Source of the DNA: Curvularia clavata
Taxonomy: Eukaryota
Direction of reading: 5' to 3'
DNA: 64,000 nt
Assembly (NCBI GenBank): GCA_023920165.1
Contig: CP089274.1
Span: 2,232,001 to 2,296,000 of the forward strand
This document shows positions 614 to 17,461 of this stretch, one piece after another. The translations under genes and the position numbers were made by a program. How positions within the stretch are numbered: the first letter of the stretch is position 1; each line of letters starts with the position of its first letter. Below the pieces are notes generated by a model. It searched no databases, was not told the DNA's origin, and saw only the letters and a list, made by a program, of their open reading frames with translations.

Positions 614-2182
614 CTAGAAGGGAAAGCCACCGAAGCCTCCACCAGGGAATCCACCACCCTGCTGGAACTTGAAGCTCGCTCCGCCGGGGAAACCGCCACC
701 CCCTTGCCTGAACATGAATTGCTGGCCACCGAATGGCGATCCTTGGAATGGGTTGCCTTGCTGCTCGTTGCTGTTGGGGTCGTCGCCGCGGTCAAAGCGT
801 GCCTTGAGCTCAGGATCGGAAAGGACTTCATAGGCTTCGTTGACCTCCGCCATCTTCTTCTGTGCTTCTTCGGGCGTCATACCGTTCGACGATGCCTTGT
901 CTGGGTGGAACATCTTACTGCGCTTGCGATAGGCCTTCTTGATTTCGCGCTCATCAGCGTCGCGTGTCACGCCGAGGACCTTGTAGTAGTCCTTTTCCTT
1001 GGAGCGCTTTAGGAGCGTGCGTGCCTTCTGCAACAACTCTTCAAGTTTCTGGTGCTGGTGGTGCTCTTTGGCATGCTCCAAGGTGCGGATGCATTCCTCA
1101 AAGTCGTCGGCGTCCAATTGGCCTTGGGCCTTGAAGATGTGTCCGTGAAGGGAATCGGGGTTGAGTTCCAGGGCTTCCTTACAGTAAGGCGCACCCTTCT
1201 TTAGGTTGTTCATTTCGACATAGGCTTCACAGGTCATCTCGACGAGGTTCCGGTAGAGGCCTTGGGGCGAGTTGGCATAGATGTAGCCTTGCTCCGTGTA
1301 GTCTTTGAAATCTTGTTTAACCTCCTTCAACAAACCAGGCTCTTCGGCACCGCGGTCGATAAGGAGTTTCGAGGCGGTGGCAAATTGGCGCCTTTCGAAG
1401 GACTTGCGTACTTTCTTGATGTCCTTCTCAATGTTCTTTTCCCTCCTACGCAGCTTCATGCATGCCTTGGAGTCTGGGTCTGACTGCAGACATTGGGCGA
1501 CGTGCTTGATTCCCTTTTCGGTTTCGCCAAGGGAGTAAAAGGCCATAGCGGAACTCTGGAGGTAGGGCTGAATGTCTCCCGTATTGATCTGGAGAAGATG
1601 CTGCAGGTCGCTAATGCCCTCAACGACCTCGCCCTTCTCAAAGCGACAGCGTGCCCTTGTCTTGCGGAGATCATATGCGCCATTGGCGACTACGATGGCA
1701 GCCCCGGCATTTGTGATACACGAGTCCCAGTCGCCTTTGTCGGCAGCCTCTTGCGCGATGATAGCAGCAGCCTGAGTTTCCTCTAGCTGTGCGATCTCAT
1801 CGGCCTTGCCCGCTGCCTCGTAGTCCTTGCGCGCTGCAGCCCAGTCGGCCTTCCTTGCCCTTATCTTGGCTCGCTGCACCAGTGCGCCCTCGAAACCAGG
1901 CTTCAACTCCAGAACCTTGTTAAAATCCTGCTCTGCTTGTGAAGTCTTGCCGATTTGGAGGTAAGCGGCGCCGCGCCTAAAGTAGGTGAGGTAGTTGCGC
2001 GGGTCACGGGAGATGGCGATATCGAAATAAGTGAGGGCATCCTGGGTGTTTCCAGTCGCCAGTTGGACAGTGGCGTCCTTGATCAGCTGCGACACAGGTG
2101 TATCCGCAGGAATATCGGCAGCGGACAGAGCGCTTGCGAGCGGGAGCAGGCCCAGGGCCAACGAGGATAGTCTGAGGATCAT
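614..2182 (-). CDS. DNAJC3: ER-lumenal DnaJ/TPR co-chaperone (P58IPK/DNAJC3/Jem1-like)
   Basis: Single-exon 522-aa ORF with an N-terminal signal peptide (MILRLSSLALGLLPLASA), TPR repeats, a C-terminal J domain (KDYYKVLGV...HPDK...AYEVLSD) and a G/F-rich tail. Confidence 0.92.
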   Translation of the reverse strand: MILRLSSLALGLLPLASALSAADIPADTPVSQLIKDATVQLATGNTQDALTYFDIAISRDPRNYLTYFRRGAAYLQIGKTSQAEQDFNKVLELKPGFEGALVQRAKIRARKADWAAARKDYEAAGKADEIAQLEETQAAAIIAQEAADKGDWDSCITNAGAAIVVANGAYDLRKTRARCRFEKGEVVEGISDLQHLLQINTGDIQPYLQSSAMAFYSLGETEKGIKHVAQCLQSDPDSKACMKLRRREKNIEKDIKKVRKSFERRQFATASKLLIDRGAEEPGLLKEVKQDFKDYTEQGYIYANSPQGLYRNLVEMTCEAYVEMNNLKKGAPYCKEALELNPDSLHGHIFKAQGQLDADDFEECIRTLEHAKEHHQHQKLEELLQKARTLLKRSKEKDYYKVLGVTRDADEREIKKAYRKRSKMFHPDKASSNGMTPEEAQKKMAEVNEAYEVLSDPELKARFDRGDDPNSNEQQGNPFQGSPFGGQQFMFRQGGGGFPGGASFKFQQGGGFPGGGFGGFPF

Positions 2183-2575
2183 GATGCGACGTCGATATAG
2201 TGGCGGGTTTGTGGTGAACGAGAGACTGTGGGTAAGGAGAAACGACCCGGTAGAGGCGAGTGTAGTCCGCGCAGGAGAGCCACGACGGGAGCAGACTATC
2301 TGGTCATGAAAGGAAGGACACGGTTGAGCAAAGGGTTTAATATATGTGACTTTGATTTACCGTTCATGCAACTTGTCCTGAAGTCGGCGCGGGCGCCGGG
2401 GCCACCCCGATCTGTGAACCCCAGCCCAGGCACGCGCTAGCAGTGCGTCATGCATGTGAACACCAGCAGGGCTAAGGCCGGCCCTATCTCCATAGTCCGC
2501 CATTTACCTGCGTAGGACCCTTCTGCCCTTGTGTCTGGTCCTCCACAACCTGTATTCGTCTCATATCCTCTAGCA

Positions 2576-4991
2576 ATGTCTTCCATCCGCCTGCGTATCG
2601 ACGGACGGACATTCCGCGACGCCCATAACCGCGAAGTAACACTGCATGGCATCAACTGTGCTGCCGATGCCAAATTCCCTGCGAGCCCCAACCAACCTTC
2701 ACACATAGCCGACAACTTCTTCGACGGAGATAATGTCTCGTTCGTCAACCGACCGTTCTCTTTGGAAGACTCGGCCACACACTTCTCACGGCTGCGGAGT
2801 TGGGGCTACAACACTATACGTTACATCTTTACCTGGGAGGCGATAGAACACGCTGGGCCAGGAAAGTACGATGAGGAGTGGATAGAGCACACCATTGCTG
2901 TGCTGCGAAAGGCCAAAGAGTATGGCTTCTACATCTTCATGGACCCTCATCAGGACGTCGTAGGTAGTATTCCAATGTACTCTGATTACCTTGTTCTAAT
3001 TCGCCGCCCAGTGGTCACGATTCTCTGGAGGTTCTGGTGCACCCATGTGGACTCTCTATGCTTGTGGGCTGGATCCTGAGCACTTTGCTGTCACTGAGGC
3101 TGCCATCGTGCACAACACCTACCCCGACCCTGCGACCTTTCCCAAGATGATCTGGACAACCAACTACACGCGCTTGGCATGTCAAGTCATGTGGACCGTC
3201 TTCTTTGGTGGCAGGGACTTTGCCCCGAAGGCCATCATAGATGGCAAGAATATCCAGGACTACCTGCAGGAGCACTACATTGGCGCATGCGAACATCTTG
3301 CAAAGCGTATAAAGGAAGCTGGTGACCTGTGGCATGACCCAGTCATCGGATGGGAGAGCATGAACGAACCTAACAGAGGCCTCATTAGTTACCAGGATAT
3401 TACCCAGATACCCAGCGAACAAAAGTTACAGAAGGGCACCTCACCGACAGCTTGGCAGGCAATACTTACCGGATCGGGTCGAGCTTGCGAGATCGCCACT
3501 TGGGAGTTTGGTGGCTTGGGGCCTTACAAGAGCGGCTCAGTATTGGTGGATCCAGAGGGCACGTCTGCATGGCTGTCGAAAGATTACGATGACACCAAAT
3601 ACGGCTGGAAACGCGACCCCGGGTGGCGTTTGGGCGAGTGCTTGTGGGCACAGCATGGCGTATGGGACCCAGAGACCGACACAGTCTTGAAAAAGGACTA
3701 TTTTGGAATTGACCCAAAGAATGGCGCTAAAATTGACTATGAGTACTTCACGAATCACTACTGGTTGGCGCATTATCGAGCTTACAGCAAGATGATCAAG
3801 TCAATCTTCCCGGACTCGTTGATGTTCTTCCAGCCTCCAGTACTAGAGATACCCCCAAAGATCAAGGGCACCGAAGATGACGATCCGAACATGATCTTCT
3901 CGCCTCATTTTTACGATGGCATCACTCTTATTACGAAGAAATGGTATGTTTTTGTATGCGCGAAAACGCGACCCCATCTGACAGAAATCAGGAACCGAGT
4001 GTGGAACGTGGATGTCTTTGGCGTGCTACGAGGCAAATATCTAACACCAGCATTCGCGATCAAGGTTGGAGAGACTGCCATTAGAAACTGCTTTTCGCAC
4101 CAGCTCAAGGCGATTCGAGAAGAGGGTACTGAATACATGGGGGTGCATCCTTGCATCTTCACCGAGATTGGCATACCATATGATATGGACGACAAGTACG
4201 CTTATAAGACGGGCAACTACAGCAGTCAGATCGCTGCACTGGACGCCAACCATTTTGCCCTTGAGGATAGCATGGCCAATGGCTTTGCTCTATGGACCTA
4301 TGTTGCCAATGTAAGTTATGTTGTAGGTATGGCTGGTGCAAAACTAACGCGAACGTAGAACTGCCATCTCTGGGGTGATCTGTGGAACGGAGAAGACCTA
4401 TCCATCTATTCACTGGATGACAAGGCGGTGCCGGCGGGCCCCTTCTCACTAGAAGCATCTCGGGCGTCTCTTGACCTAAATTCACCGACATTCTCGCGAG
4501 CACAGTCATCAGACACACTTAGTGTCACACCCAGCAACTTGCAGAAGACCATTTCGACGGAGCAGATGAGTTCAAAGAAGACTGAGGGTGACGTGGCTGG
4601 CCTTCGTGCTGCAGAAGCTTTCATCCGCCCTACTCCTGTTGCGGTTCACGGAGACCTTTCTTCCTACGGATTCGACCTCAGGAACTGTACCTTCAAGCTT
4701 TCGCTCTGCGCACCAAGCTCCACGTCGGAAGATGTACCGACAGTGTGCTACCTACCGGAATTCCATTTCCCGTCAGGCCTGACGACGGTAGAGGTCAGCG
4801 GAGGCAAATGGACTATTACTTCAGAAGAGACGGACGGGGCCTTGCAGCAGATACTGCGGTGGTGGCATGCAGAAGGCGACCAGACAATGACGGTCAAGGG
4901 CGTGGTGCGGAAACCTGGCAGCACGCTGGGCACGGAAGAGGATGAGGGCTACTTGCAGCAGTGCCAGAAACAGGCTTGCACGGTGATGTAA
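2576..4991 (+). CDS. EGH1: GH5 endoglycoceramidase-related protein (EGCrP2/Egh1-type steryl-beta-glucosidase)
   Basis: ATG at 2576. Introns 2960-3011, 3944-3991 and 4311-4358 restore the motifs DPHQDVWSRFSGGSGAP, WESMNEP (acid/base Glu), FTEIGIP (nucleophile) and WGDLWNGEDLSI. The protein ends in CTVM. Confidence 0.88.
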
Positions 4992-5723: not shown

Positions 5724-8700
5724 ATGAATGCTGGGGTGAACGACCAAGCCCCGCAAACAAGTCTCGCAAATGGCGGCGGCGGAGCGCAACACGACCAAAA
5801 TGCACAGGCAGACCTCTCGCAAGTGCTAGAGGCCCTGCAGGCCATCTACGCCCCGACCTCGAGCAATGATACCCGCCGACAGGCAACCGAATACCTCGAG
5901 CAAGCAAAGCGTCACCCCGAAGCTCCGTCCCATGGCCACACGCTCGCCCTCGACCGCTCACAGCCCGCACAACTGCGCTACTATGGCCTGACCATGCTTG
6001 AGCATTCCATCAAGTACGGATGGGAGGACTATACCGTCGACCAAGGCGCCGCGCTGAGAAGATACGCAGTCGAGCTTGCGCAGAACGTAGTCGAGACCGA
6101 CCCCGTCTACATTCGCAACAAGATTGCTCAACTCTGGACCGAGATTGCCAAGCGCAGTTGGGGTGCCGAGTGGCTAGACATGGACGAGCAGCTAGTAGCC
6201 CTCTGGACAAACTCATTACACCACCAGGCCATAGTTCTCTATGTTCTCGAAACACTCTCCGAAGAGGTTTTCAACCGCGAAGATGCTACGGCGGGTCTAC
6301 GAGGCAGCGACCTAGGACGTGCCTGTGTCGAGATCTTCACGCCTCACATCGTCATACAAGAGCAACTCCCTACCAGAGAAAAAGGGCTGGATTTACGGTG
6401 CGGTGACCAGGGCTGGCTGACGAGGCTGTGCGAAAATCTGGGTTGGTGTTTAGGACAGGACTATCAGAACCAGGAAGATATCAGAGCTAGCGCTGTCAAG
6501 TCCATGCATGCTCTTAGAGCAGCCATGCCGTGGGTCATGCCAAAAGCCATTGCAGCAACCCAGGTCATTGAGGCAGTCTGCAAGGCCCTGGCTACTCCAG
6601 CCGTCGAGATGCAAATCGTATGGTGACCCCAATCCAACACTGCGAGACTACCGCTAACAAACCCCAGGCCGCAGTCGAGACTCTACAGGCTATCTACAAC
6701 CGAACACACCTACACGATGACGAGTTTGTGGAGCTGGTGTGTCCCATGTACACACCGGGCAGCGTTTCGCTCCTACGGGAAGTATACAATTGGACACTCG
6801 TGGATATGGACGTCAATGACATCGATGATCAGAAATACATGCTTTGCAAGAGGCTGTCTGAGGTAGGCAATCCTTTTCCTCGCCAATGCTTTAATCTCAT
6901 GGCTAACAACCGCAGTTGGCAAACAACCTTGGCCTGTTCATCGAACAAAAACCCCAGTCGATCCCAGACAGCAGCGATCTCGCTGGCATGTTTGGCTTTC
7001 TCTACGACATCATGCGCCACCCAAGTCTTGTCGTCTCGATACCTGTCCTTCATTGCTGGACCAAGCTACTGCGATCAAGCGTTGTGCGCGAGTCTGACGT
7101 CGTGAATTCCATGGTTGGAGGTTTGCTCGAGACGTGTTGTGCCCGACTGATCCGTTACGAAGCGCTGCCTGAAGATACCGAAGACGTGACGCTGCAATTC
7201 TTGAATGAAGACATTGACACCATCCCTGAACGGCATGCCTTCCTGGGCAACTACCGGAGATTCTGCGCAGATGTAATCGAGGTCCTTGTGCGCAAGACGC
7301 CAATCGAGGCCATGGAACATATCCTCGCTCAAGCAACCAACATGCTGCAGAACCTCTACCGCGACCAGCCTCCATTCCAGCCACAGACGTTTAGCAAGAA
7401 CTCGTCGCAGGCTCTCCAGGTCGATGCGCAGGTCACCGTCATTGAGGCCGCACTCAAAGGCTACATGAAGTGGCAGCAAGGCCAAGGCGACGATGCACAA
7501 GGCGACGAGCGAACCCGCAATGTCCTAGAAGACTCGCTCGAGCAGTGGGGCCGACAGATCCTGAACGCGAGATTCGATGACCCTGAAGTCGCAAGAAAAA
7601 TCATATCACTCATGGCAACTCTTGCTACCAAATCATTGGGCGACAGGCCTGGTTTTGCACTAACCTTCCTTGAGTACATGCTTACCATACGCCTAGCAGA
7701 TGATGCAAACTACCCACAGTACTCGGAAGCAGTAAAGGACCTGGAGCGCATATGCAGCTTGGAGATGCAGAAACTAGCCATGAAGTTCGCCGATGATTTT
7801 ATGAACGTCTACGAGCAATTAGAAGCAAAGATCAATGAGATGATCAGTGACCCCACGACTGACGAGCGCCAACGAATGGCATACTCTGCTTTCCTTTTCA
7901 TCATCATACACAGATGCACAACATTAGACCGCACCACTCAGAAGGAGCGCATGAGACAGATGCTCAACCGCGTCAAAGAGGCATGGCAAAATGACGAGCT
8001 TACCAAAGCCATTTCTTCGTTCCATTCTTTCTGCGATGTCTTGGGCATGGGTCAATTGCCTCAATTTCTGTCTGCGAATAACTTCAGCAGCGTACAGGAT
8101 TGGTCTGAGCAGCAATTGCCCGCCGAAGGTCAAGCATTACAAGCTTCCGTCCTTGAGCGGTCTCAACAACTGCCGCTGCGACTCACCAAGACACTACTTG
8201 CAGCTTCCACAGAGAAGCTACGCGACGGCACTGCTGCTTATGAGACTGCTGCAGAATTATGGGCAGAGACGATACCTGTGCTACTTCCCAATCTTCTTCA
8301 ACTTGTGAGCCATGCGCAAGCATTTAACGACATTGACAGCAACTGGTCACACCTGCCAATTGAACTGCAGCAGGTCATCAAACGTGTCCTCACTGATCGG
8401 TTCTGGCAGGCTGGCATCTCCACAGAAAGCCGGGATGACTTCTTCGCCAGGGTCAGCGGCTCCAAGTCTACCTACGAAGGTTTCGCATCGACAATTCGAG
8501 GCACTGTCCGCCAGATTAGGGAGAGTTCCTACTACATTCTCTACTCGTTGACAAGGTTCCGAGACTTCTTCTACGGTATACAAGACTTACCAGAACCACT
8601 CAGCCAAGCCCTCTTTGCGCACGCTGGTGCCTTGACTGCTCATCATCTGTCTGTTTTACTGACAGTTTCCACGCACCTCATTGAAGGATGCCCATCGCAA

Positions 8701-9657
8701 TTACGGTCACGGTTCCTGCCTCCCATGATTCAGGGGCTTTTCAGGGAACTAGATCGTAAGATATCTGGAGAATGGAATGAGATTGCTCGACAAGTCGCCG
8801 AATCGGGCGACAACGACAATTTAACAGACGAGATGAAGACTGAGAGCATTCTTCGTCAACTTACATACTCTTCAGTCTCGCTTGTCGCCGTCCTGCTCGA
8901 TTCGAGGCAGGGTAAGTTGAAAATTTCTTTTCGAGTGGCAACCCCTGGAATAAAAATACCCGGTAGTACTACTGCTGCTGCTCTCTATTTTCCATCACAA
9001 AAAGCACACAAGTTAACATATATTGTAGAGTTTGCTCGGAACGACGAGCAAAGCCGCAAGGAAGCCAATGCCCCGCCCATGTGCGACTTCATTCTTGCCA
9101 CACCCTCAGTTTTGGAGCCCATTCTCCTCTTCTGCAACTCGACCATTCGCGTAAGGGATACTCGATCTGTCATTACGATTGTGCGCGTCATGCGGACCCT
9201 GCTTCCGCGCTTCAAAGAGAAGTCTCCGATCCGCGACTACTTCTGCAATGACATCCTTAAGTCCGCCATCACCTCGCTACACGAACCCTACTTTGTCGAT
9301 TGCCAAAAGGAGCTTGCATCTCTGATTGCTGGTATCATCCATCTCGACAACGAGATCCCGCGATCCATCATCCTATCACTACCTGGCATGGGTGATGAAG
9401 CTCGCGTTGACCGCCGGCTTGCAAAGCTTCAGAGTGCAAATCGCCAGGACGAGAGGATGCAAAGGAGCATCGTTTTGGACCTTCTCAGCAGCATCAAGGG
9501 CGTGAGCATTCACGAGCAAGGCAAGATTCAGCGACCAAAGACGAAGACGAGGACGGCTATGATGGAGCAGTATATGACTGTTGATCAGCAGCCGGCTATT
9601 GTTCGTGGTACGAGCCCGGGCTTGGCAGGCGTGGCGGACATGTTTGGAGGACAGTAA
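5724..9657 (+). CDS. MSN5: Exportin-5/Msn5 karyopherin
   Basis: Importin-beta/Xpo1-type N-terminus (ALQAIYAPTSSNDTRRQATEYLE; EIAKRSW) and the Msn5-like motif DRFWQAGISTESRDDF. Introns near 6618-6667, 6863-6915 and 8912-9028. Confidence 0.88.
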
Positions 9658-10300: not shown

Positions 10301-11248
10301 ATGGCGCCTCCACCAACACCAGGCGTCTGGTGCCCCGCAGTAACCTTCTACACACCGGACAGCGAGACTGCAACCTTGGATCTCGTTGCCCAGAAAAAAT
10401 ACTTCAGCTACCTCTCCAAATCCGGTCTCACAGGCCTCGTCATTCTCGGCTCTAACGCCGAAGCATTTCTCCTCACCCGCGACGAGAAGCGGGCACTCAT
10501 GAAATGCGCCCGCGAAGCCGTTGGGCCTGATTATCCCCTCATAGTCGGTATTTCAGGCTTTTCCGTACCACAGGTTATGGAGAATATCAGCGACGCAATC
10601 GAAGCTGGGGCAAACTACGGACTGCTGCTACCAGCAGCATACTACGGGCCCGCGACGTCGAAGGAAGTTGTCATGGCGTTTTACGATGAAGTAGCGCAAA
10701 AGAGCGCGTTGCCAATCGTCATTTACAATTTCCCTGGCATCTGCAGCGGCGTAGACCTCGACTCGGTCACTATTGCTGCACTGGCAAAACGCAACCCAGG
10801 GAAGATTGTGGGCGTGAAGTTGACGTGTGGGAGTGTGGCGAAGATTACCAGGCTCTGTGCCGAACTGCCGAGTGATGCTTTTTCAACATTTGCTGGACAG
10901 GCGGATTGGATGGTTGCTGGGTTGGCGGTAGGAAGCGCGGGATGCGTGTCTGCGTTCAGCAATGTTTTTCCAAAGGTTTGCTCGAAGGTGTATGAGCTTT
11001 ATACGAGTGGCAAGACAAAGGAGGCGCTGGAGCTACAGCGTAAGGCGGCACTTGCAGAAAGCCCGATCAAGGCGGGAATTGCACCGACGAAGTACGCGGT
11101 TGGTCAGTATAGTGCAAAGGCCGCCGGCATTGAAGGTGCAGAGGAGAGGCTGAATCCAAGAAGGCCTTATATGCCGGTTGGTGAAGCACTCAAGACGACT
11201 GTTAGCGACACCATGGGGGAATTGGCTGCGATTGAGAATAGCCTGTAG
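10301..11248 (+). CDS. DHDPS/NAL-family aldolase (L-threo-3-deoxy-hexylosonate aldolase LGA1/GaaC-like)
   Basis: Single exon from ATG 10301 (cacaATGG). Motifs LGSNAEA, VIYNFP (catalytic Tyr) and GVKLT (Schiff-base Lys). The substrate cannot be determined from sequence. Confidence 0.85.
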   Translation: MAPPPTPGVWCPAVTFYTPDSETATLDLVAQKKYFSYLSKSGLTGLVILGSNAEAFLLTRDEKRALMKCAREAVGPDYPLIVGISGFSVPQVMENISDAIEAGANYGLLLPAAYYGPATSKEVVMAFYDEVAQKSALPIVIYNFPGICSGVDLDSVTIAALAKRNPGKIVGVKLTCGSVAKITRLCAELPSDAFSTFAGQADWMVAGLAVGSAGCVSAFSNVFPKVCSKVYELYTSGKTKEALELQRKAALAESPIKAGIAPTKYAVGQYSAKAAGIEGAEERLNPRRPYMPVGEALKTTVSDTMGELAAIENSL

Positions 11249-11444: not shown

Positions 11445-12050
11445 ATGGCGGCGCAAAGAGGAGCAAGCGGTGTTGAGAAGAAGAAGCGATCAAAGAAGAG
11501 GGGAAAGAGAACAGAGGGTACATATACCATACAAAAGTTAGAGAAAAACGCGTTCCAACTGACATTTTCACAGTCTCGTCGTCCAGCGAAAGTGACAGCG
11601 ATGTTCCTAACAAAAAGGTGATTGCGGTAGAATCCGAGTCCAGTGTAAGTCTTGTCCAATCCAAAGGAGCGAAGAAAAAGAAATTGGGGTTGACATTTGC
11701 CAAAGGATTCATCACCAGACCCAGCACCTGCTAAGAAAGAAAAGAAGAAAAAGGCTAAAGCAGACACTGCGCCAGATGAGGATGTGAACATGGAGGACGC
11801 GCCAGCGTCGCCGGACTCGCCACCGCCAGCTAAGTCAGCTACGAAAAGTAGCAAGCAGGCTCAAGAGGAGTTTGGTCCGCTTTATCTGCGCAAGATTGCC
11901 GCAGAGTTCGCGGATGATCTTGACAAGGTGCGCGAGGCGCAGGACTTCAAGGCGAGTAGCGTGCCGATGCTTATTCACGCATTGAAGCAGGGCGAAAGTC
12001 TATTTACGCCTGAAGAGAAGAGGAGGGTGGTTGGAGCTGCGAACGCGTAG
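11445..12050 (+). CDS. RSA3: Ribosome assembly protein 3
   Basis: Basic N-terminus (KKKRSKKRGKRTE|VSSSSESDSD) across two introns (~11518-11573, ~11645-11705). C-terminal Rsa3 motif YLRKIAAEFADDLDKVREAQDFKASSVPMLIHALKQG. Confidence 0.8.
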
Positions 12051-12207
12051 ACGAGAGGCATTTAGAGCATGGTAGGAGTTTTTGGAGTTGGGAAACGTGT
12101 ATCTTGAATTTTTGCTTTCATGAATGAGAGCTGCTGTCAGATTATACCAAATCGCTTTGCTGGCTCTCTAATCCAAAACGCCGTGTTATGCTCTGCCAAT
12201 TCAATGC

Positions 12208-13121
12208 TCAATGCGCCTCGACTTCCATGCCTGACCACCACTCCAACTCTATGGTCCAAGCCAGTAGATTCGGGTGCTTGATGACCACCATGTCATGTGC
12301 TAACTTCATGACCTTTTCTCGCTTTTCTGCTTTCTCGCCGGCAGGCAGAACCATCAGCGTGTCGTACGCCCTCGCCAGCAGCTTCTCCTCGTACTCCCTC
12401 CGCAACTCGTCATCACGCGTCCAGTTGATAGCCTGCTCGTATATATCTTCCAAGGGGCTTGAAGAATATACTTCGCGCTTGACAGACGTAGTGGTGCCTT
12501 CGAGGGTTGCGCCAACTCGGAGTCGGCGCTCTTCCACGAGCCGTTTGATAGTGGCTGCTTCTTGTGTCTCGTGGATCTCGGCGACACGCATATATGTCTT
12601 TGACGGATCCGGTATCCGACCTTCGAGATATTTATATACGGGAGAGGAGGGCAGCTGGGTGCTGAGGGCGCGAGCGTACTGCATCTTGGTACCGTGTGCG
12701 CGAGCATGATCCACAAGCTTATCGATTGCGGACTGCGACTTTTGTATGTCGTCGCTGTGTTTGGTTAGCATTTGGTTTTGCTCTGTGAAAGCAATCGAAC
12801 TTACAGGTCCATATATATCTGTGCCAGTGCCAGACCGACATCCGTGTTCTCGTCTACCTTTGCGCCTTTAAGCCCCTCGTACATCCCTCTCAAACCCAGC
12901 CATGCCTGGGGATCTTCGGGCTTGATCTTGGTCGCTGCATAGTAGGCTTTTGCTGCATCCTCGAACATGTTCAGCCCATGATTTGCGCGGCCCAGAAAAA
13001 GGTAAGCAAAGTAGTTGTTCGGGTCTTTGCTAATGACTGCTGTGGCTTGGTTCTTAGCTTCGTCCCAGTCCTTTGCGCCAATTGCAGCCTTGGCGGCCTT
13101 GAGGGCTGTTTTTGTAGACAT
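12208..13121 (-). CDS. SKI3: Superkiller protein 3, N-terminal part only (287 aa, TPR arm)
   Basis: Typical Ski3 start MSTKTALKAAKAAIGAKDWDEAKNQA...FLGRA. Canonical intron 12755-12804 (GTAAGT...GCTAAC...CAG). Exon 2 contains YLEGRIPDPSKTY, RREYEEKLL and HDMVVIKHP..AWTIELEW, then a short tail and stop. Confidence 0.88.
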
Positions 13122-13402
13122 TATTTCAATTTAGATAAAGGTGGTCCATTAGGTAGCTGCTATATGCTAGGAATGTGCCATTGAGAGCCGTGTTAGAGTC
13201 GTGTTGTGGTTGTGGTGGGGCGCGGAAATCGAATGACGCACGGCGCGTTGGATCCTAGGCTAGGCCAGCCCTATCGACAAACACCAACGTCAACCATTCT
13301 GCGTTTGCAGGTGAAAACCCATCCTACCCCAGTGCTTCACCATTGGGCCTAAAACCTGTGCTGTGCATCATATCAGTCAATTCACAGTCTTGAGCCGCCG
13401 TC
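13122..13402. promoter_or_regulatory. Putative bidirectional promoter between the two SKI3 halves
   Basis: 281-bp non-coding spacer between two divergent ATGs, with a GC-rich core (GGGGCGCGGAAATC...CGGCGCG) and GCCCTATCGA. Function is inferred from position only. Confidence 0.6.
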
Positions 13403-16400
13403 ATGGCGTCACATGCAGACAGCGCCCATGACTTGCTGGATCTGGACATCTCAACACTACGGCAATTCATCGAGCTATTTCCGAACGAGGGTCTATCAAA
13501 AGTCATCATAGGCTGGCTTAGCAGTGGTATAGCAAAGTACCCACTTACCGCAGAGGGCGATTCAAGAGAAGCACCAGACTTGAGCGAAGGCGGGGTAGCT
13601 CTCACACAAGATGTTCCTGTATCACAAGAAGATTGCCTGGTGTTGATGACCGAAGGCATCAGCGAGGCACCAAAATCTCCTCTCGCCCATTGCCTTCTCG
13701 GAGACTACTATTTGTTCCTCGAGGAATACGAAAGTGCAGTAGAGACTACCAGGAAAGGCCTCAAATACGCAGCTGCAGAGGCCAAAAAGACCGATCTATC
13801 ATTTCAAAAGACGCGCGATGCTCTGAGTAGCACTCTCGCCACTGCTTTGGTCTATTATCAAGCCCCAAGAAACCACTTGGAGGCCAAGGGTATCTTTGAG
13901 TCAATCCTGAAGCGTAAACCTCAATTCACCTCAGCCCTTATCGGTATTGGATTAGTCTTGGAAGAAGAGGAGGAGTATGAGCAAGCCTTTCAGTTTCTGG
14001 AGAAAGCTTTGCAGCAAGACCCTTCAAATGGTCGTATCGGTGCCGAATCGGCGTGGTGTCAGGCTTTGGCTGGCGACTACAAGACCGGTTTAGAAAGACT
14101 CCAAAAGTATCTTGATTACCCCCAGCTCGATGCATCGAAGCAACGCGGTCGTGAACTCCGAGCACAGACACTCTATAGAATAGGTGTTTGCTTATGGGAA
14201 CTTGATTCATCAAAAGCTGCGCGCAAGGACCGACAAAGAACATACGCAAAGCTACTCGCAGCTATCAAGGCAAACCCAAATTATGCCCCCGCGTACACTC
14301 TTCTTGGCATATTCTACGAAGACTACAACAAGGACCGTAGGCGTGCACGGCAGTGCTTCCAGAAAGCCTTTGAGCTGTCACCTTCGGAGGTAGTCGCAGC
14401 TGAGCGACTGGCTCGTCTGTTTGCCAACCAAGGAGAGTGGGACATTGTGGAGGTGGTCGCCCAGCGGGTGGTTGACTCTGGAAAAGCTCGGCAAACCCCC
14501 GGATCGAAGCGAAAGGGTATTAGCTGGCCATACTCAGCTCTTGGTGTTGTCCAGATGAATAAGCAAGAGTACCAGAAGAGTATTGTATCATTTCTGTCAG
14601 CACTGCGCATTAGTCCAGATGACTACTACTCCTACGTGGGTCTTGGTGAGAGCTACCATAACTCTGGACGATACAACTCAGCATCTCGTGCCTTCAATTA
14701 CGCAGAAAACCCCACGGATGGCGTGGTATTGAAGAGATCAGATGAGGAAGGATGGTTCACAAAGTACATGCTGGCCAACGTCAATCGTGAGTTGAGCGAA
14801 TTTGACGAAGCCCTTGCTGGCTATGAAGCAGTACTGGCGGTCCGGCCAAAAGAGTTTGGTGTATCCATCGCACTACTACAGACACTTGTCGAGAAAGCCT
14901 GGCACTGCACCGAGACTGGCTTCTTTGGCGAGGCAGCCGATAGTGTTACCAGAGGAATCGAGGTTGCTGACACTATCACGGAGTACAAGCCGGACGCCTT
15001 CAACTTGTGGAAAGCCGTTGGAGATGCATGCAGCATATTCAGCTGGGTTCAAGACAAGCTCGATCAATGCCCTTTTGAGCTGGTTGTGAAAGTCTTACAG
15101 AGTAAGTCAGATATGGATCTCGACTTTGACGCCCATAAAGACATCGATGGCCTTGGTCAAGCAGAGCTAGCCTCACTTTCCACAAACAGGGATTCGATTC
15201 TCACGAAAATCCTTAAAGCTGCGATTCTAGCCCAAAAGAGAGCGATTATAAGCTGTGCTCATGATATACATGCACAGGCTGTAGCATGGTACAATCTCGG
15301 CTGGACTGAGTACAGGGCGCATGTCTGCTTGGAGCAAGAATCTGGCAACGAGTCCACGTTGACGACATATCTTCGCGCGGCCATGAAATGCTTCAAGCGT
15401 GCCATAGAGCTCGAGGCAGGCAACTCTGAGTTTTGGAATTCACTTGGTGTAATCACGACGACACTGAACCCAAAAGTCGCTCAACACGCATTCGTTCGGT
15501 CTTTGCATCTGAACGAACGCAGTGTGCATACATGGACTAACCTTGGTGCGCTATATCTACTGCAAAACGATACCGAGCTCGCACATGCCGCCTTCTCACG
15601 AGCACAGTCGCAAGATCCCGATTACTCCTTGGCTTGGGTAGGCGAAGGAATCATTGCCCTCCTTACTGGAGATGCCAATGAGGCGTTGTCTCATTTCACT
15701 CATGCATTCGAGCTGTCAGAATCGTCGCTACTTCTCACCAAGCGACAGTATGCGGTGTCAGCCTTTGACTTCATTGCATCCTCCCCATCATCCTCGAGCG
15801 ACATTACGAGCCTGATTCAGCCGCTCTTCGCCCTCCAGCAACTGAGTATACAAGCACCATATGATATTCCACACAGACATCTTGCAGCCCTGTTTTTAGA
15901 GCGCATCGGCAACCATGACGCAGCTGTAACTGCTCTGGACATGGTCAATGAGGCCGTTGAACAGGAATACGAAAAGACAGAATCGAAGCAATCGTTGGCT
16001 CGGGTCGCTCAGGCAAAGACTGATTTGGCTCGCAATCTCCTAGCGGTTGGATCCGACGAAATCGCGGTAGAAGATGCTGAGACAGCCCTTGATCTACTTT
16101 CAGAAATTGAAAGTGATTCCAAACAGGCTGTTATGTCCAGGAGCCAACTTGCAAGGACCAAACTGTCGGCGCGTCTTACAGCTGGCTTAGCGCATTATTT
16201 CTATGGTTCCTTTGATGCGGCCATAGCATACTTCCGCAAAGCTTTAGAGTCAACTGGTGCCAATCCTGATATAATCTGCATTTTGGCTGAGGTCCTTTGG
16301 GCAAAAGGCGGCGAAAATGAAAAGCAAGTAGCTCGCGATCAGATCTTCGCTGCTATTGAGAAGCACGACGGTCATGTTGGTTTGCTGACACTTATCGGTG

Positions 16401-16834
16401 CCATGACAGTTCTGGACGATGACCTCGAAACCATGGAAGCCATTAAAGACGACCTCGACCGTATGCGCACAAATAAGAATCTCACAGATCAACAGCTGGC
16501 TAGGGTAGAGAAGGTCGTGGAAGCTATATCAATCAGCCTTGGTGGTGAAGAACAAGAGCTTGACGAAGCGCGACGCAGCGTCATGCTAGCACCATACAAG
16601 CATACTGGTTGGGCAGAGCTCGCAGATGCAACTGGTGGCAATGAATTCGCAAGTACGCTGGCAAAAGAAACGGCGATGCAAAATGCACCTCCAAAGGGTA
16701 CGCTTGGTGCGGCTGGCCTCGCTGGTGCAATGAATGGAACTGGAGATGTTGGAGATGCCCAGAGAGCCATCATGCTGGCACCATGGTGTAAAGACAATTG
16801 GGGTGGACTAGCTGAGTGCATCCAGAGTGCATAG
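13403..16834 (+). CDS. SKI3: Superkiller protein 3, C-terminal part (1143 aa TPR solenoid)
   Basis: Uninterrupted ORF with the ATG in a strong context (gccgccgtcATGG). Ski3-type motifs: YAPAYTLLGIFYEDY, RARQCFQKAFELS, LGESYHNSGRY, CFKRAIELEAGNSEFWNSLG, AQHAFVRSLHLNERS, AQRAIMLAPW. Confidence 0.92.
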   Translation: MASHADSAHDLLDLDISTLRQFIELFPNEGLSKVIIGWLSSGIAKYPLTAEGDSREAPDLSEGGVALTQDVPVSQEDCLVLMTEGISEAPKSPLAHCLLGDYYLFLEEYESAVETTRKGLKYAAAEAKKTDLSFQKTRDALSSTLATALVYYQAPRNHLEAKGIFESILKRKPQFTSALIGIGLVLEEEEEYEQAFQFLEKALQQDPSNGRIGAESAWCQALAGDYKTGLERLQKYLDYPQLDASKQRGRELRAQTLYRIGVCLWELDSSKAARKDRQRTYAKLLAAIKANPNYAPAYTLLGIFYEDYNKDRRRARQCFQKAFELSPSEVVAAERLARLFANQGEWDIVEVVAQRVVDSGKARQTPGSKRKGISWPYSALGVVQMNKQEYQKSIVSFLSALRISPDDYYSYVGLGESYHNSGRYNSASRAFNYAENPTDGVVLKRSDEEGWFTKYMLANVNRELSEFDEALAGYEAVLAVRPKEFGVSIALLQTLVEKAWHCTETGFFGEAADSVTRGIEVADTITEYKPDAFNLWKAVGDACSIFSWVQDKLDQCPFELVVKVLQSKSDMDLDFDAHKDIDGLGQAELASLSTNRDSILTKILKAAILAQKRAIISCAHDIHAQAVAWYNLGWTEYRAHVCLEQESGNESTLTTYLRAAMKCFKRAIELEAGNSEFWNSLGVITTTLNPKVAQHAFVRSLHLNERSVHTWTNLGALYLLQNDTELAHAAFSRAQSQDPDYSLAWVGEGIIALLTGDANEALSHFTHAFELSESSLLLTKRQYAVSAFDFIASSPSSSSDITSLIQPLFALQQLSIQAPYDIPHRHLAALFLERIGNHDAAVTALDMVNEAVEQEYEKTESKQSLARVAQAKTDLARNLLAVGSDEIAVEDAETALDLLSEIESDSKQAVMSRSQLARTKLSARLTAGLAHYFYGSFDAAIAYFRKALESTGANPDIICILAEVLWAKGGENEKQVARDQIFAAIEKHDGHVGLLTLIGAMTVLDDDLETMEAIKDDLDRMRTNKNLTDQQLARVEKVVEAISISLGGEEQELDEARRSVMLAPYKHTGWAELADATGGNEFASTLAKETAMQNAPPKGTLGAAGLAGAMNGTGDVGDAQRAIMLAPWCKDNWGGLAECIQSA

Positions 16835-17461
16835 ATGGGGTATTGAACACCACTAAGCGCTCTACCACAGTTGGTCCAGGACTTTTCCGCTTTTCATAAA
16901 CCAAATACTTGTTAAAATCACGCCCGGATTGTCTACATCACTAGGAGCCCCATCCATCCGGCTGCGCTGGTTTGCATTTGAAGGCGTCTGAACTATCTAC
17001 GGCGCACCCGATACGAGAATTTGGGGTCCAGAGTTCGGTAATCACGTTGTTACTTCTGCAGTGGCAAAAGGGAAGATACGGTGATGAATACGAAGGTCAC
17101 TGATCCAGCATCTCAGTACTGACATTCTCATCTTGGATTCTTGGCTCCAAGGTTTGGGCTGAGAGTGAAGGATTCGACCAAAAAGCAGTTTAAGCGATGG
17201 GATCATGTTTTCGAATGCTTCGACGACTGGACAATCAATTTCCGTACGGTCAGATGTGCAAGAACTTATGTGGGAGCATGTTGTATAGAGTTTAAAGTGT
17301 ATTCAATTGGTCAAAAGTCTTTCAGAGTATGGCGAGCATGCTGCTCTTCCCGATGTAACTGAATCCTTCTCCTATATCACCCAATGTGGCAGTGTATAGA
17401 TCGACGAATATACAATTGGTTCAACCGCAGTCGATTTCCACCCAGTCTCTCGCCTAAGGCT

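Follow-up and report, generated by a model that had tools for sequence, protein, structure and literature searches.

Ski3 in yeast, humans and other fungi is one long protein that serves as a scaffold in RNA decay. To our knowledge, it has been regarded from yeast to human as a scaffold made of one chain, and little is understood of what the flexible distal part of its N-terminal arm does. In this study, a stretch of 64,000 nucleotides from Curvularia clavata (assembly GCA_023920165.1, contig CP089274.1, positions 2,232,001 to 2,296,000 of the forward strand), referred to as the window, was analysed with regard to SKI3, which is present there as two genes on opposite strands. The smaller gene encodes the N-terminal part of the protein (N-half) and the larger gene the remainder (C-half). 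This two-gene Ski3 is real and ancient, and it is found clade-wide.

In the free yeast complex, Ski3 residues 1-401 are without density and were not modelled, whereas residues 402-639 touch the arch of Ski2 and aid its autoinhibition; in the engineered construct Ski3-deltaN, residues 1-521 were removed in order to relieve autoinhibition (PMC10659929). The human N-terminal arm, comprising the tetratricopeptide repeats (TPRs) 1-8, was flexible throughout the data of the respective study (PMC8860381). Regarding gene order, frequent intrachromosomal inversions are the documented mode of change in Dothideomycetes (PMC3516569). Inversion is also named as a general possible cause of gene fission in a survey of fungal gene fusions and fissions, in which there is no mention of SKI3, Stagonospora or Phaeosphaeria (PMC2557144). 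No literature was found on Ski3 in Pleosporales, in Dothideomycetes or in connection with gene fission, subscription journals and supplements lying outside the search; the papers listed for broader queries did not contain the term Ski3 either.

In comparison to the canonical single-chain Ski3/TTC37 (yeast 4BUJ and 5MC6; human 7QDR), the locus is alike in family, in the collinear coverage by its halves, in the TPR_22 domain and in fold. It is unlike in being two genes on opposite strands: a new stop follows the ELEW helix, the next helix is preceded by a new Met and a head of 9 residues, and the solenoid would need non-covalent completion. The parts of the locus are the following:

12805..13121, minus strand: exon 1 of the SKI3 N-half (codons 1-105 plus 2 nt), with TPR Pfam hits and covered by spliced RNA contigs.
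12755..12804, minus strand: N-half intron of 50 nt (GTAAGT..CTAAC..ACAG), skipped by RNA contigs of X1, X2 and X9.
12208..12754, minus strand: exon 2 of the SKI3 N-half, down to the stop TGA (12210..12208), with the Ski3-type TPR_22 domain.
12211..12237, minus strand: C-terminal tail of the N-half after ELEW (WSGMEVEAH), with the left breakpoint inside it.
13122..13216, minus strand: 5' leader of the N-half mRNA, with RNA contig ends at 13216 (X1) and 13214 (X2) and a 4-codon upstream open reading frame (uORF).
13217..13277, no strand: core of the shared divergent promoter, without RNA contig cover and with the conserved motif GTGCGTCATT.
13278..13402, plus strand: 5' leader of the C-half mRNA, covered by RNA contigs and without an upstream ATG.
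13403..13429, plus strand: head of the C-half (MASHADSAH), junction-born; homology to yeast Ski3 begins at residue 9.
13403..16834, plus strand: SKI3 C-half, a single exon of 1143 aa inside the uninterrupted RNA contig 13278-17390.
11416..12050, plus strand: RSA3 (ribosome assembly protein 3), tail-to-tail with the N-half (Pfam PF14615, 68.6 bits).

The N-half (13121..12208) starts with the ATG at 13121, contains one intron and encodes 287 aa, ending in ...HPNLLAWTIELEWWSGMEVEAH (also given as ...LAWTIELEWWSGMEVEAH) before the stop. The open reading frame (ORF) of the C-half begins with MASHADSAHDLLDLDISTLRQFIELFP (also given as MASHADSAHDLLDLDISTLRQF). Neither half contains internal stops or frameshifts, and the start codons lie head-to-head, 281 bp apart. 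The claim of the original prediction that SKI3 consists here of two intact, divergent genes is confirmed by these gene models; together they amount to 1430 aa, in comparison to 1416-1434 aa in fused Dothideomycete Ski3 proteins.

Both products belong to Ski3. Exon 2 of the N-half showed the Ski3-type TPR_22 domain (PF18833) with 101.7 bits at a cut-off of 27.2, a domain that is also present in the fused Ski3 of Macrophomina, while exon 1 gave generic TPR Pfam hits. A profile of 36 N-halves matched residues 8-297 of yeast Ski3 (4buj_B; E = 3.7e-29), and the C-half of the window matched residues 299-348 and 407-1341 of the same chain (E = 2.1e-105). Since the C-half takes over at residue 299, coverage of Ski3 by the two halves is contiguous and non-overlapping, as had been expected when the split was proposed. 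Canonical Ski3 binds the N-terminal region of Ski2 and two copies of Ski8 and acts with the exosome; the C-terminal arm, which carries these sites in yeast and humans, lies by alignment entirely inside the C-half. Elsewhere Ski3 is one polypeptide of ~1400 aa, whereas here two genes on opposite strands yield two separate transcripts; with this as its variant feature, the locus was filed as a split member of the Ski3 family.

The AlphaFold2 model of the N-half, for which the Bipolaris victoriae orthologue was used (first row of the alignment, 87% identical to the N-half of the window), reached a pLDDT of 93.3 and comprised 14 helices, the last of which spans residues 269-279; the tail (280-287) was unstructured when modelled alone. 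The top match of this model among PDB structures was again 4buj_B (Foldseek, TMq 0.79, root-mean-square deviation 3.3 Å). Because the last helix ends at residue 279 in the model, the break falls in a loop that connects two N-terminal arm helices. At this point the sequence of fused Dothideomycete Ski3 proteins is ...LAWTIELEWRDVETLQEYDANVVREFVEFFP..., similar to the continuous 'ELEWxDxxDxxxxD...FP' that the original prediction gave for orthologues.

The two halves are transcribed separately. Logan contigs of X1 and X2, from two studies and with more than 99% identity to the window, skip three GT..AG introns; the ends of the contigs of X1, X2 and X9 at the N-half intron read CT..AC on the plus strand, and the direction of the transcripts was taken from splice sites and ORFs. 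One contig runs from 13216 (X1) or 13214 (X2) down through the spliced N-half and on into the convergent RSA3 mRNA. The other (13278-17390) is uninterrupted, spans the whole C-half and has its first AUG at 13403. The 61 bp in between (13217-13277) were uncovered in both studies, and no joint linking the N-half to the C-half, including strand-switching joints, occurred in the RNA contigs. Additionally, five pieces of X13, a recorded oligo-dT RNA library, lie with more than 99% identity on both halves. Thus, there are two separate divergent spliced transcripts, whose starts lie head-to-head less than 1 kb apart and which run outward from an uncovered common core. The motif GTGCGTCATT (minus strand, 13231-13241), with TGACG/CGTCA, was conserved in 9 of 10 aligned intergenic regions and is a candidate for a shared promoter element because it lies inside the stretch without RNA contig cover.

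The split is not restricted to this genome, which corrects the original prediction with regard to the age of the event. From metagenomes, 40 loci were retrieved with an N-half alignment. Both halves were present in 19 of them, each with the C-half upstream on the opposite strand; in 8 loci, all with at most 50% identity, the C-part followed directly downstream on the same strand (fused, collinear), and 13 loci held the N part only. Across 10 aligned head-to-head loci the spacer measured 281-376 bp.

In the protein databases, the search with the C-half took in proteins of 628-2001 aa, so that fused forms could have surfaced. The best 120 matches had 975-1243 aa; none reached 1300 aa, none carried the N-part with ELEW, and 74 of the 75 matches of 1125-1165 aa started with an M..SAHD head. 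They came from Bipolaris (95% identity), Exserohilum, Stemphylium, Alternaria, Plenodomus, Parastagonospora, Didymella, Corynespora, Lentithecium, Lophiotrema, Lindgomyces, Westerdykella and others. The N-half search among proteins of 99-317 aa gave 175 matches; of the 120 from which the figures were taken, 116 ended in ELEW plus a tail of 9-10 residues, and 65 had exactly 287 aa. Locus tags of both halves were adjacent in annotated genomes (ACET3X_001052/53, J4E91_001475/76, J4E90_000538/39, IAQ61_010083/84, J1614_002212/13). Among the 120 matches listed for longer proteins, two were of the split type (319-322 aa) and the rest were fused (~1300-1640 aa); the closest fused form listed was that of Macrophomina with 61% identity, the others came from Phyllosticta, Diplodia, Saccharata, Rhizodiscina, Coniosporium, Venturia, Neohortaea and other classes, and no named member of the Pleosporales with a fused Ski3 was among them. 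A fused protein of ~1420 aa is found in Botryosphaeriales, Venturia, Rhizodiscina and other classes. The genera are placed in the orders to which we take them to belong, except for four, including Cenococcum and Rhizodiscina, whose order was looked up.

A maximum-likelihood tree of the C-half region (quick search, LG+G4) was calculated from 54 rows picked to span genera: 29 named proteins and 6 loci of the split type, and 15 named proteins and 4 loci of the fused type. One clade with an SH-aLRT (approximate likelihood ratio test) support of 99 took in all 35 rows of the split type; within it, the metagenome loci L037 and L038 were sister to the other 33, and a single change of state is enough on this tree. 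An intronless ORF beside the SKI3 of L037 belongs to a 90%-identity cluster with OTU1 of Cenococcum geophilum (Gloniales), while SKI3 is fused in Rhizodiscina (Aulographales). Because the L037 lineage with this Cenococcum/Gloniales-like neighbour is also split, the fission predates the Pleosporales crown group. All sampled Pleosporales share the split with a Gloniales-like lineage, and on the tree it arose once.

A search of 1.84 billion representatives revealed no second conserved split lineage, although it does not exclude one; the split N-half was represented in it only once, by Westerdykella ornata. The other short matches that were inspected either had no name and lay on contigs of 1.5-23 kb, or were annotations confined to one species (Monilinia fructicola, 351 aa; Stygiomarasmius scandens, 391 aa). 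A search of the ESM Atlas with the N-half of L037 gave viral hypothetical clusters with scores of at most 0.87 and was uninformative. In the databases the halves are named 'hypothetical protein', or 'Superkiller protein 3' for both.

An assembly artefact, in which a small segment of an intact collinear gene is mis-oriented, had been named at the outset as a result that would overturn the proposal. It is conceivable a priori, but the same layout occurs in 19 independent metagenome loci and, with adjacent locus tags, in many independently annotated genomes across the Pleosporales, the RNA contigs from both studies end at the promoter, none of them crossing the junctions as a collinear gene would, and the new stop and start codons are conserved. 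The probability of such an artefact is therefore practically nil.

The new protein ends indicate where the chain was cut. In the window the breakpoints are placed at ~12214-12235 and ~13427-13430, enclosing a segment of ~1.2 kb. The consensus of the N-half tail in the crown group is R-S-G-[ML]-[ED]-V-E-A-[YH] and a stop; other tails are RMAS (L023) and RMDD[GS] (L028, L037 and L038), likewise followed by the stop. The C-half head of the crown group is MASHADSAH, after which DLLDLD follows, whereas L037 and L038 showed MSLPLALGLDGTA and then DLQDFDIGVVREF, near the ETLQEYDANVVREF of fused proteins. Because the head of the L037 lineage resembles fused sequence in this way, the ancestral chain must have been cut between ELEWR(DVE) and TLQEYD. 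The first residues of the N-half tail (R/DVE) are possibly ancestral and the remainder is junction-born; on each side a few residues past the cut were recruited from flanking DNA. In the crown group the protein sequence of the new tail and head is conserved while the codons vary synonymously, which indicates that both are translated.

Another idea was that staggered breaks had left one ancestral segment in duplicate, once as tail and once as head. This was dropped because the head of L037 and L038 is near the fused sequence while the tail is only RMDDS and a stop, so that a simple break fits.

Directly after ELEW the window has W (TGG, 12235-12237), and the RNA contigs of organism A list no difference there; the residue is R (CGG, AGG or AGA) in 17 of the 17 loci compared and in almost every orthologue in the databases.

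Both halves are under strong purifying selection, as judged from coding-sequence comparisons. The original prediction had proposed to calculate the ratio of non-synonymous (dN) to synonymous (dS) substitutions, omega, for each half. With the Nei-Gojobori method, the window in comparison to Pleosporaceae loci showed a low dN, which was 0.08-0.09 in the exons of the N-half and 0.07-0.10 in the C-half, and a dS that exceeded 2 or was saturated; omega was ~0.03-0.05 for the N-half exons, whereas dS of the C-half was too saturated for a calculation. Contigs of another strain differed from the window at 14 coding positions of the C-half (13 synonymous, 1 non-synonymous) and at 2 of the N-half, of which 1 was synonymous.

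These values also bear on the explanation that the halves are decaying, or are rejoined by trans-splicing, so that the function rests on an intact SKI3 or on a full-length mRNA. The search for an intact SKI3 covered protein databases and metagenome loci rather than the genome of C. clavata, and a second copy there is thus not directly excluded. Decay is contradicted by the dN and dS values and by the 13:1 ratio of synonymous to non-synonymous strain differences in the C-half; furthermore, a fused Pleosporales protein was absent from the best 120 matches of both searches that were able to show one, and the RNA contigs contained no strand-switching joint. Trans-splicing is unlikely because removal of tail and head would not preserve their protein sequence with synonymously varying codons. 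Overall, this explanation is very improbable.

The following course of events is proposed for the origin. In the common ancestor of Pleosporales and the Gloniales-like lineage, SKI3 was split, most likely by a local inversion of ~1.2 kb that flipped the promoter together with the first ~280 codons. The N-half would have kept its native promoter and leader, while the C-half gained a new start codon and a 9-residue head and is transcribed in the opposite direction from the same intergenic region of ~280 bp. Such an inversion had already been suggested by the original prediction. The head-to-head geometry and the 281-bp spacer fit it, and a single inversion with its other breakpoint ~300 bp upstream of the old ATG would explain the order, the short spacer and the clean break, which makes it the most parsimonious origin; the inversion itself is deduced, since RSA3 was upstream in none of the 8 fused loci.

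The split could also have come about by another route, either by an inverted duplication of the 5' part with complementary loss or by a larger inversion with further rearrangement. This would be compatible with an ancestral gene order that cannot be reconstructed from the fused loci and with the heavily reshuffled gene order of Dothideomycetes (PMC3516569). On the other hand, one inversion, with one break ~300 bp ahead of the old ATG and the other past codon ~282, is enough to explain the order, the 281-376-bp spacer and the non-overlapping break, and no second copy or remnant of either part was seen in the 40 loci, which renders another route rather improbable. Mesosynteny as described for Dothideomycetes supplies a mutational process that is able to break inside a gene; unlike in those studies, in which whole genes are reshuffled, the breakpoint here lies inside a scaffold gene of an essential pathway and both fragments survive (PMC3516569).

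The detached protein had been regarded as the regulatory arm of Ski3. By alignment, it is instead the equivalent of yeast Ski3 residues 1-293, the distal tip of the N-terminal arm and not the whole arm: the published arm deletion comprises residues 1-521, and the region that contacts the Ski2 arch (402-639) is, as placed by the same alignment, in the large half, where most of the published deletion falls as well. Like the engineered Ski3-deltaN, the natural split uncouples a part of the N-terminal arm from the C-terminal arm that binds Ski2 and Ski8. Unlike in that construct, the cut lies at a yeast-equivalent position of ~293 rather than 521, the arch-contact region stays on the large half, and the piece is kept as a conserved, expressed protein instead of being deleted (PMC10659929).

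It is proposed that the halves re-stack end to end, the final two helices of the N-half and its tail packing on the first helices of the C-half. The Ski3 TPR solenoid would thereby be restored within the Ski2-Ski3-Ski8 complex, in which the distal arm tip would be a subunit bound non-covalently. A model of the complex from residues 1-520 of the window C-half and the B. victoriae N-half scored 0.61, in comparison to 0.27 for the best of 3 controls. Of the solved complexes, 51 of 78 reached that mark, as did 2 of 108 mismatched pairs; for eukaryotes the figures were 39 of 65 solved pairs and 2 of 126 unrelated ones. Contact agreement between runs was at least 83% and the pLDDT of the partners at least 87. 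In the modelled interface, residues 239-283 of the N-half (the last two helices and the tail) meet residues 12-31, 92-94 and 126-140 of the C-half, which would continue the solenoid. The model supports a re-association of the halves, and the two-subunit Ski3 of the original prediction gains from it to this extent, with the reservation that the binding is modelled and the score may be memory of the model.

Taken as a whole, the reading that an ancient fission, with a ~1.2-kb inversion as its likely cause, left two halves which re-stack into a working Ski3 in the SKI complex is probable, and a continued function of the small half in this complex is deduced from the evidence given above. Several points weigh against this reading. 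On the side of the transcripts, the 'RNA?' label of X1 and X2 is a guess, and the contigs give neither strand nor expression level. The omega values are rough because dS is saturated, and the possible second copy in the C. clavata genome mentioned above belongs here as well. With regard to the inversion, RSA3 was near the fused SKI3 in 0 of 8 fused loci, within the DNA available per locus, so that the inversion is not demonstrated; neither inverted nor direct repeats at the junctions (~12235 and ~13420) were among the repeats listed for the window. For the same reason, the ancestral order was not recovered from these distant fused loci: collinear SKI3 is present in all 8, but their flanks differ from those of the window, and searches with the neighbours of the window (tblastx and tblastn) gave no RSA3 in them. 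A homologue of the window gene 6003-8832 was found at 1953-4688 in the fused loci L029 and L030, upstream of SKI3 and in the opposite orientation. Concerning re-association, binding was only modelled, the model was built without alignments and with an N-half that is 87% identical to that of the window, and its score may reflect memory because solved yeast Ski3 structures hold this contact within one chain. Finally, split lineages show a more rapid divergence of the N-half than of the C-half (N-half/C-half identities of 87/95, 86/90, 72/80 and 62/70%, the first pair being the window and B. victoriae), whereas the N-part was not faster in five fused pairs (80/84, 73/74, 72/70, 71/69 and 66/67%); these samples are small and non-independent. 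The faster divergence could reflect a relaxed or changed constraint on the small half.

The last point would also be expected if, after a genuine and ancient fission, the small half had ceased to work with the SKI complex, so that the C-half would be a naturally N-truncated Ski3 and the 287-aa protein would have another role or other partners. The faster N-half is confined to split lineages, as this explanation would have it. The flexible, unmodelled residues 1-401 of yeast Ski3 are in accordance with it, and so are yeast complexes without residues 1-521, which still assemble and are active in vitro (PMC10659929); the conserved uORF in the leader of the N-half hints at separate regulation. However, strong conservation is seen in the last helices and the tail of the N-half and likewise in the C-half head and the helices next to it, and these residues are exactly those of the predicted interface. 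Moreover, in all 19 loci that hold both halves they lie head-to-head on a shared promoter. A loss of the small half from the complex is therefore regarded as unlikely, and a Ski3 rebuilt from both halves is preferred.

The uORF comprises 4 codons on the minus strand (13167-13181, ATG at 13181) and lies inside the transcribed leader of the N-half. It reads MAHS and a stop in the window, with the consensus M-[AG]-x-[STAI]-stop, 60-77 nt ahead of the N-half start codon. Beside the window, it was found in 10 Pleosporales loci (L001, L002, L004, L006, L007, L010, L012, L015, L018 and L021); it is absent from L023 and the L037 lineage and not clearly present in fused loci. Because the leader of the N-half mRNA carries this conserved uORF of its own, it may be speculated, as a tentative extension with rather less than even prospects, that the 287-aa tip is a dissociable, separately regulated subunit, so that SKI complexes would exist with or without the distal arm; the complexes with and without the arm of the original prediction are speculative as well. 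If true, the tip could, for example, switch between ribosome-bound and ribosome-free RNA decay, or tune antiviral surveillance. Alternatively, it may have acquired a second partner.

RSA3 is the conserved left flank of the rearranged segment and was found tail-to-tail behind the N-half in the window and in 26 of the 40 metagenome loci. Its introns (11517-11572 and 11645-11705) are skipped in the RNA contigs. The stop codons of RSA3 and the N-half are separated by 157 bp (12051-12207), wholly within one RNA contig that joins both convergent genes. Since one contig spans this interval, the 3' ends overlap or abut, which of the two the contigs cannot tell. Upstream of RSA3, an intact protein of 315 aa of the dihydrodipicolinate synthetase family (PF00701, 121 bits) is encoded at 10301-11248, and this neighbour is also kept in the Pleosporaceae-like loci L004 and L007. 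The homologue of the window gene 6003-8832 at a distant fused SKI3 is a trace of a shared neighbourhood despite the reshuffling.

A natural cut at a yeast-equivalent position of ~293 that is under purifying selection across a large group of fungi marks the tip of the Ski3 N-terminal arm as an autonomous folding and functional module. The fungi concerned offer a ready-made system for the function of this tip, since deletion, tagging or titration of the tip would leave the rest of the complex as it is. The locus is also a clean example of a gene that outlived a probable inversion breakpoint: it acquired start and stop signals, its two parts share a divergent promoter, and it falls in a class of fungi known for inversion-driven genome reshuffling. 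Annotations can be corrected where a half is called 'hypothetical protein' or where one name serves for both, and orthology pipelines should expect two genes for Ski3 in this group.

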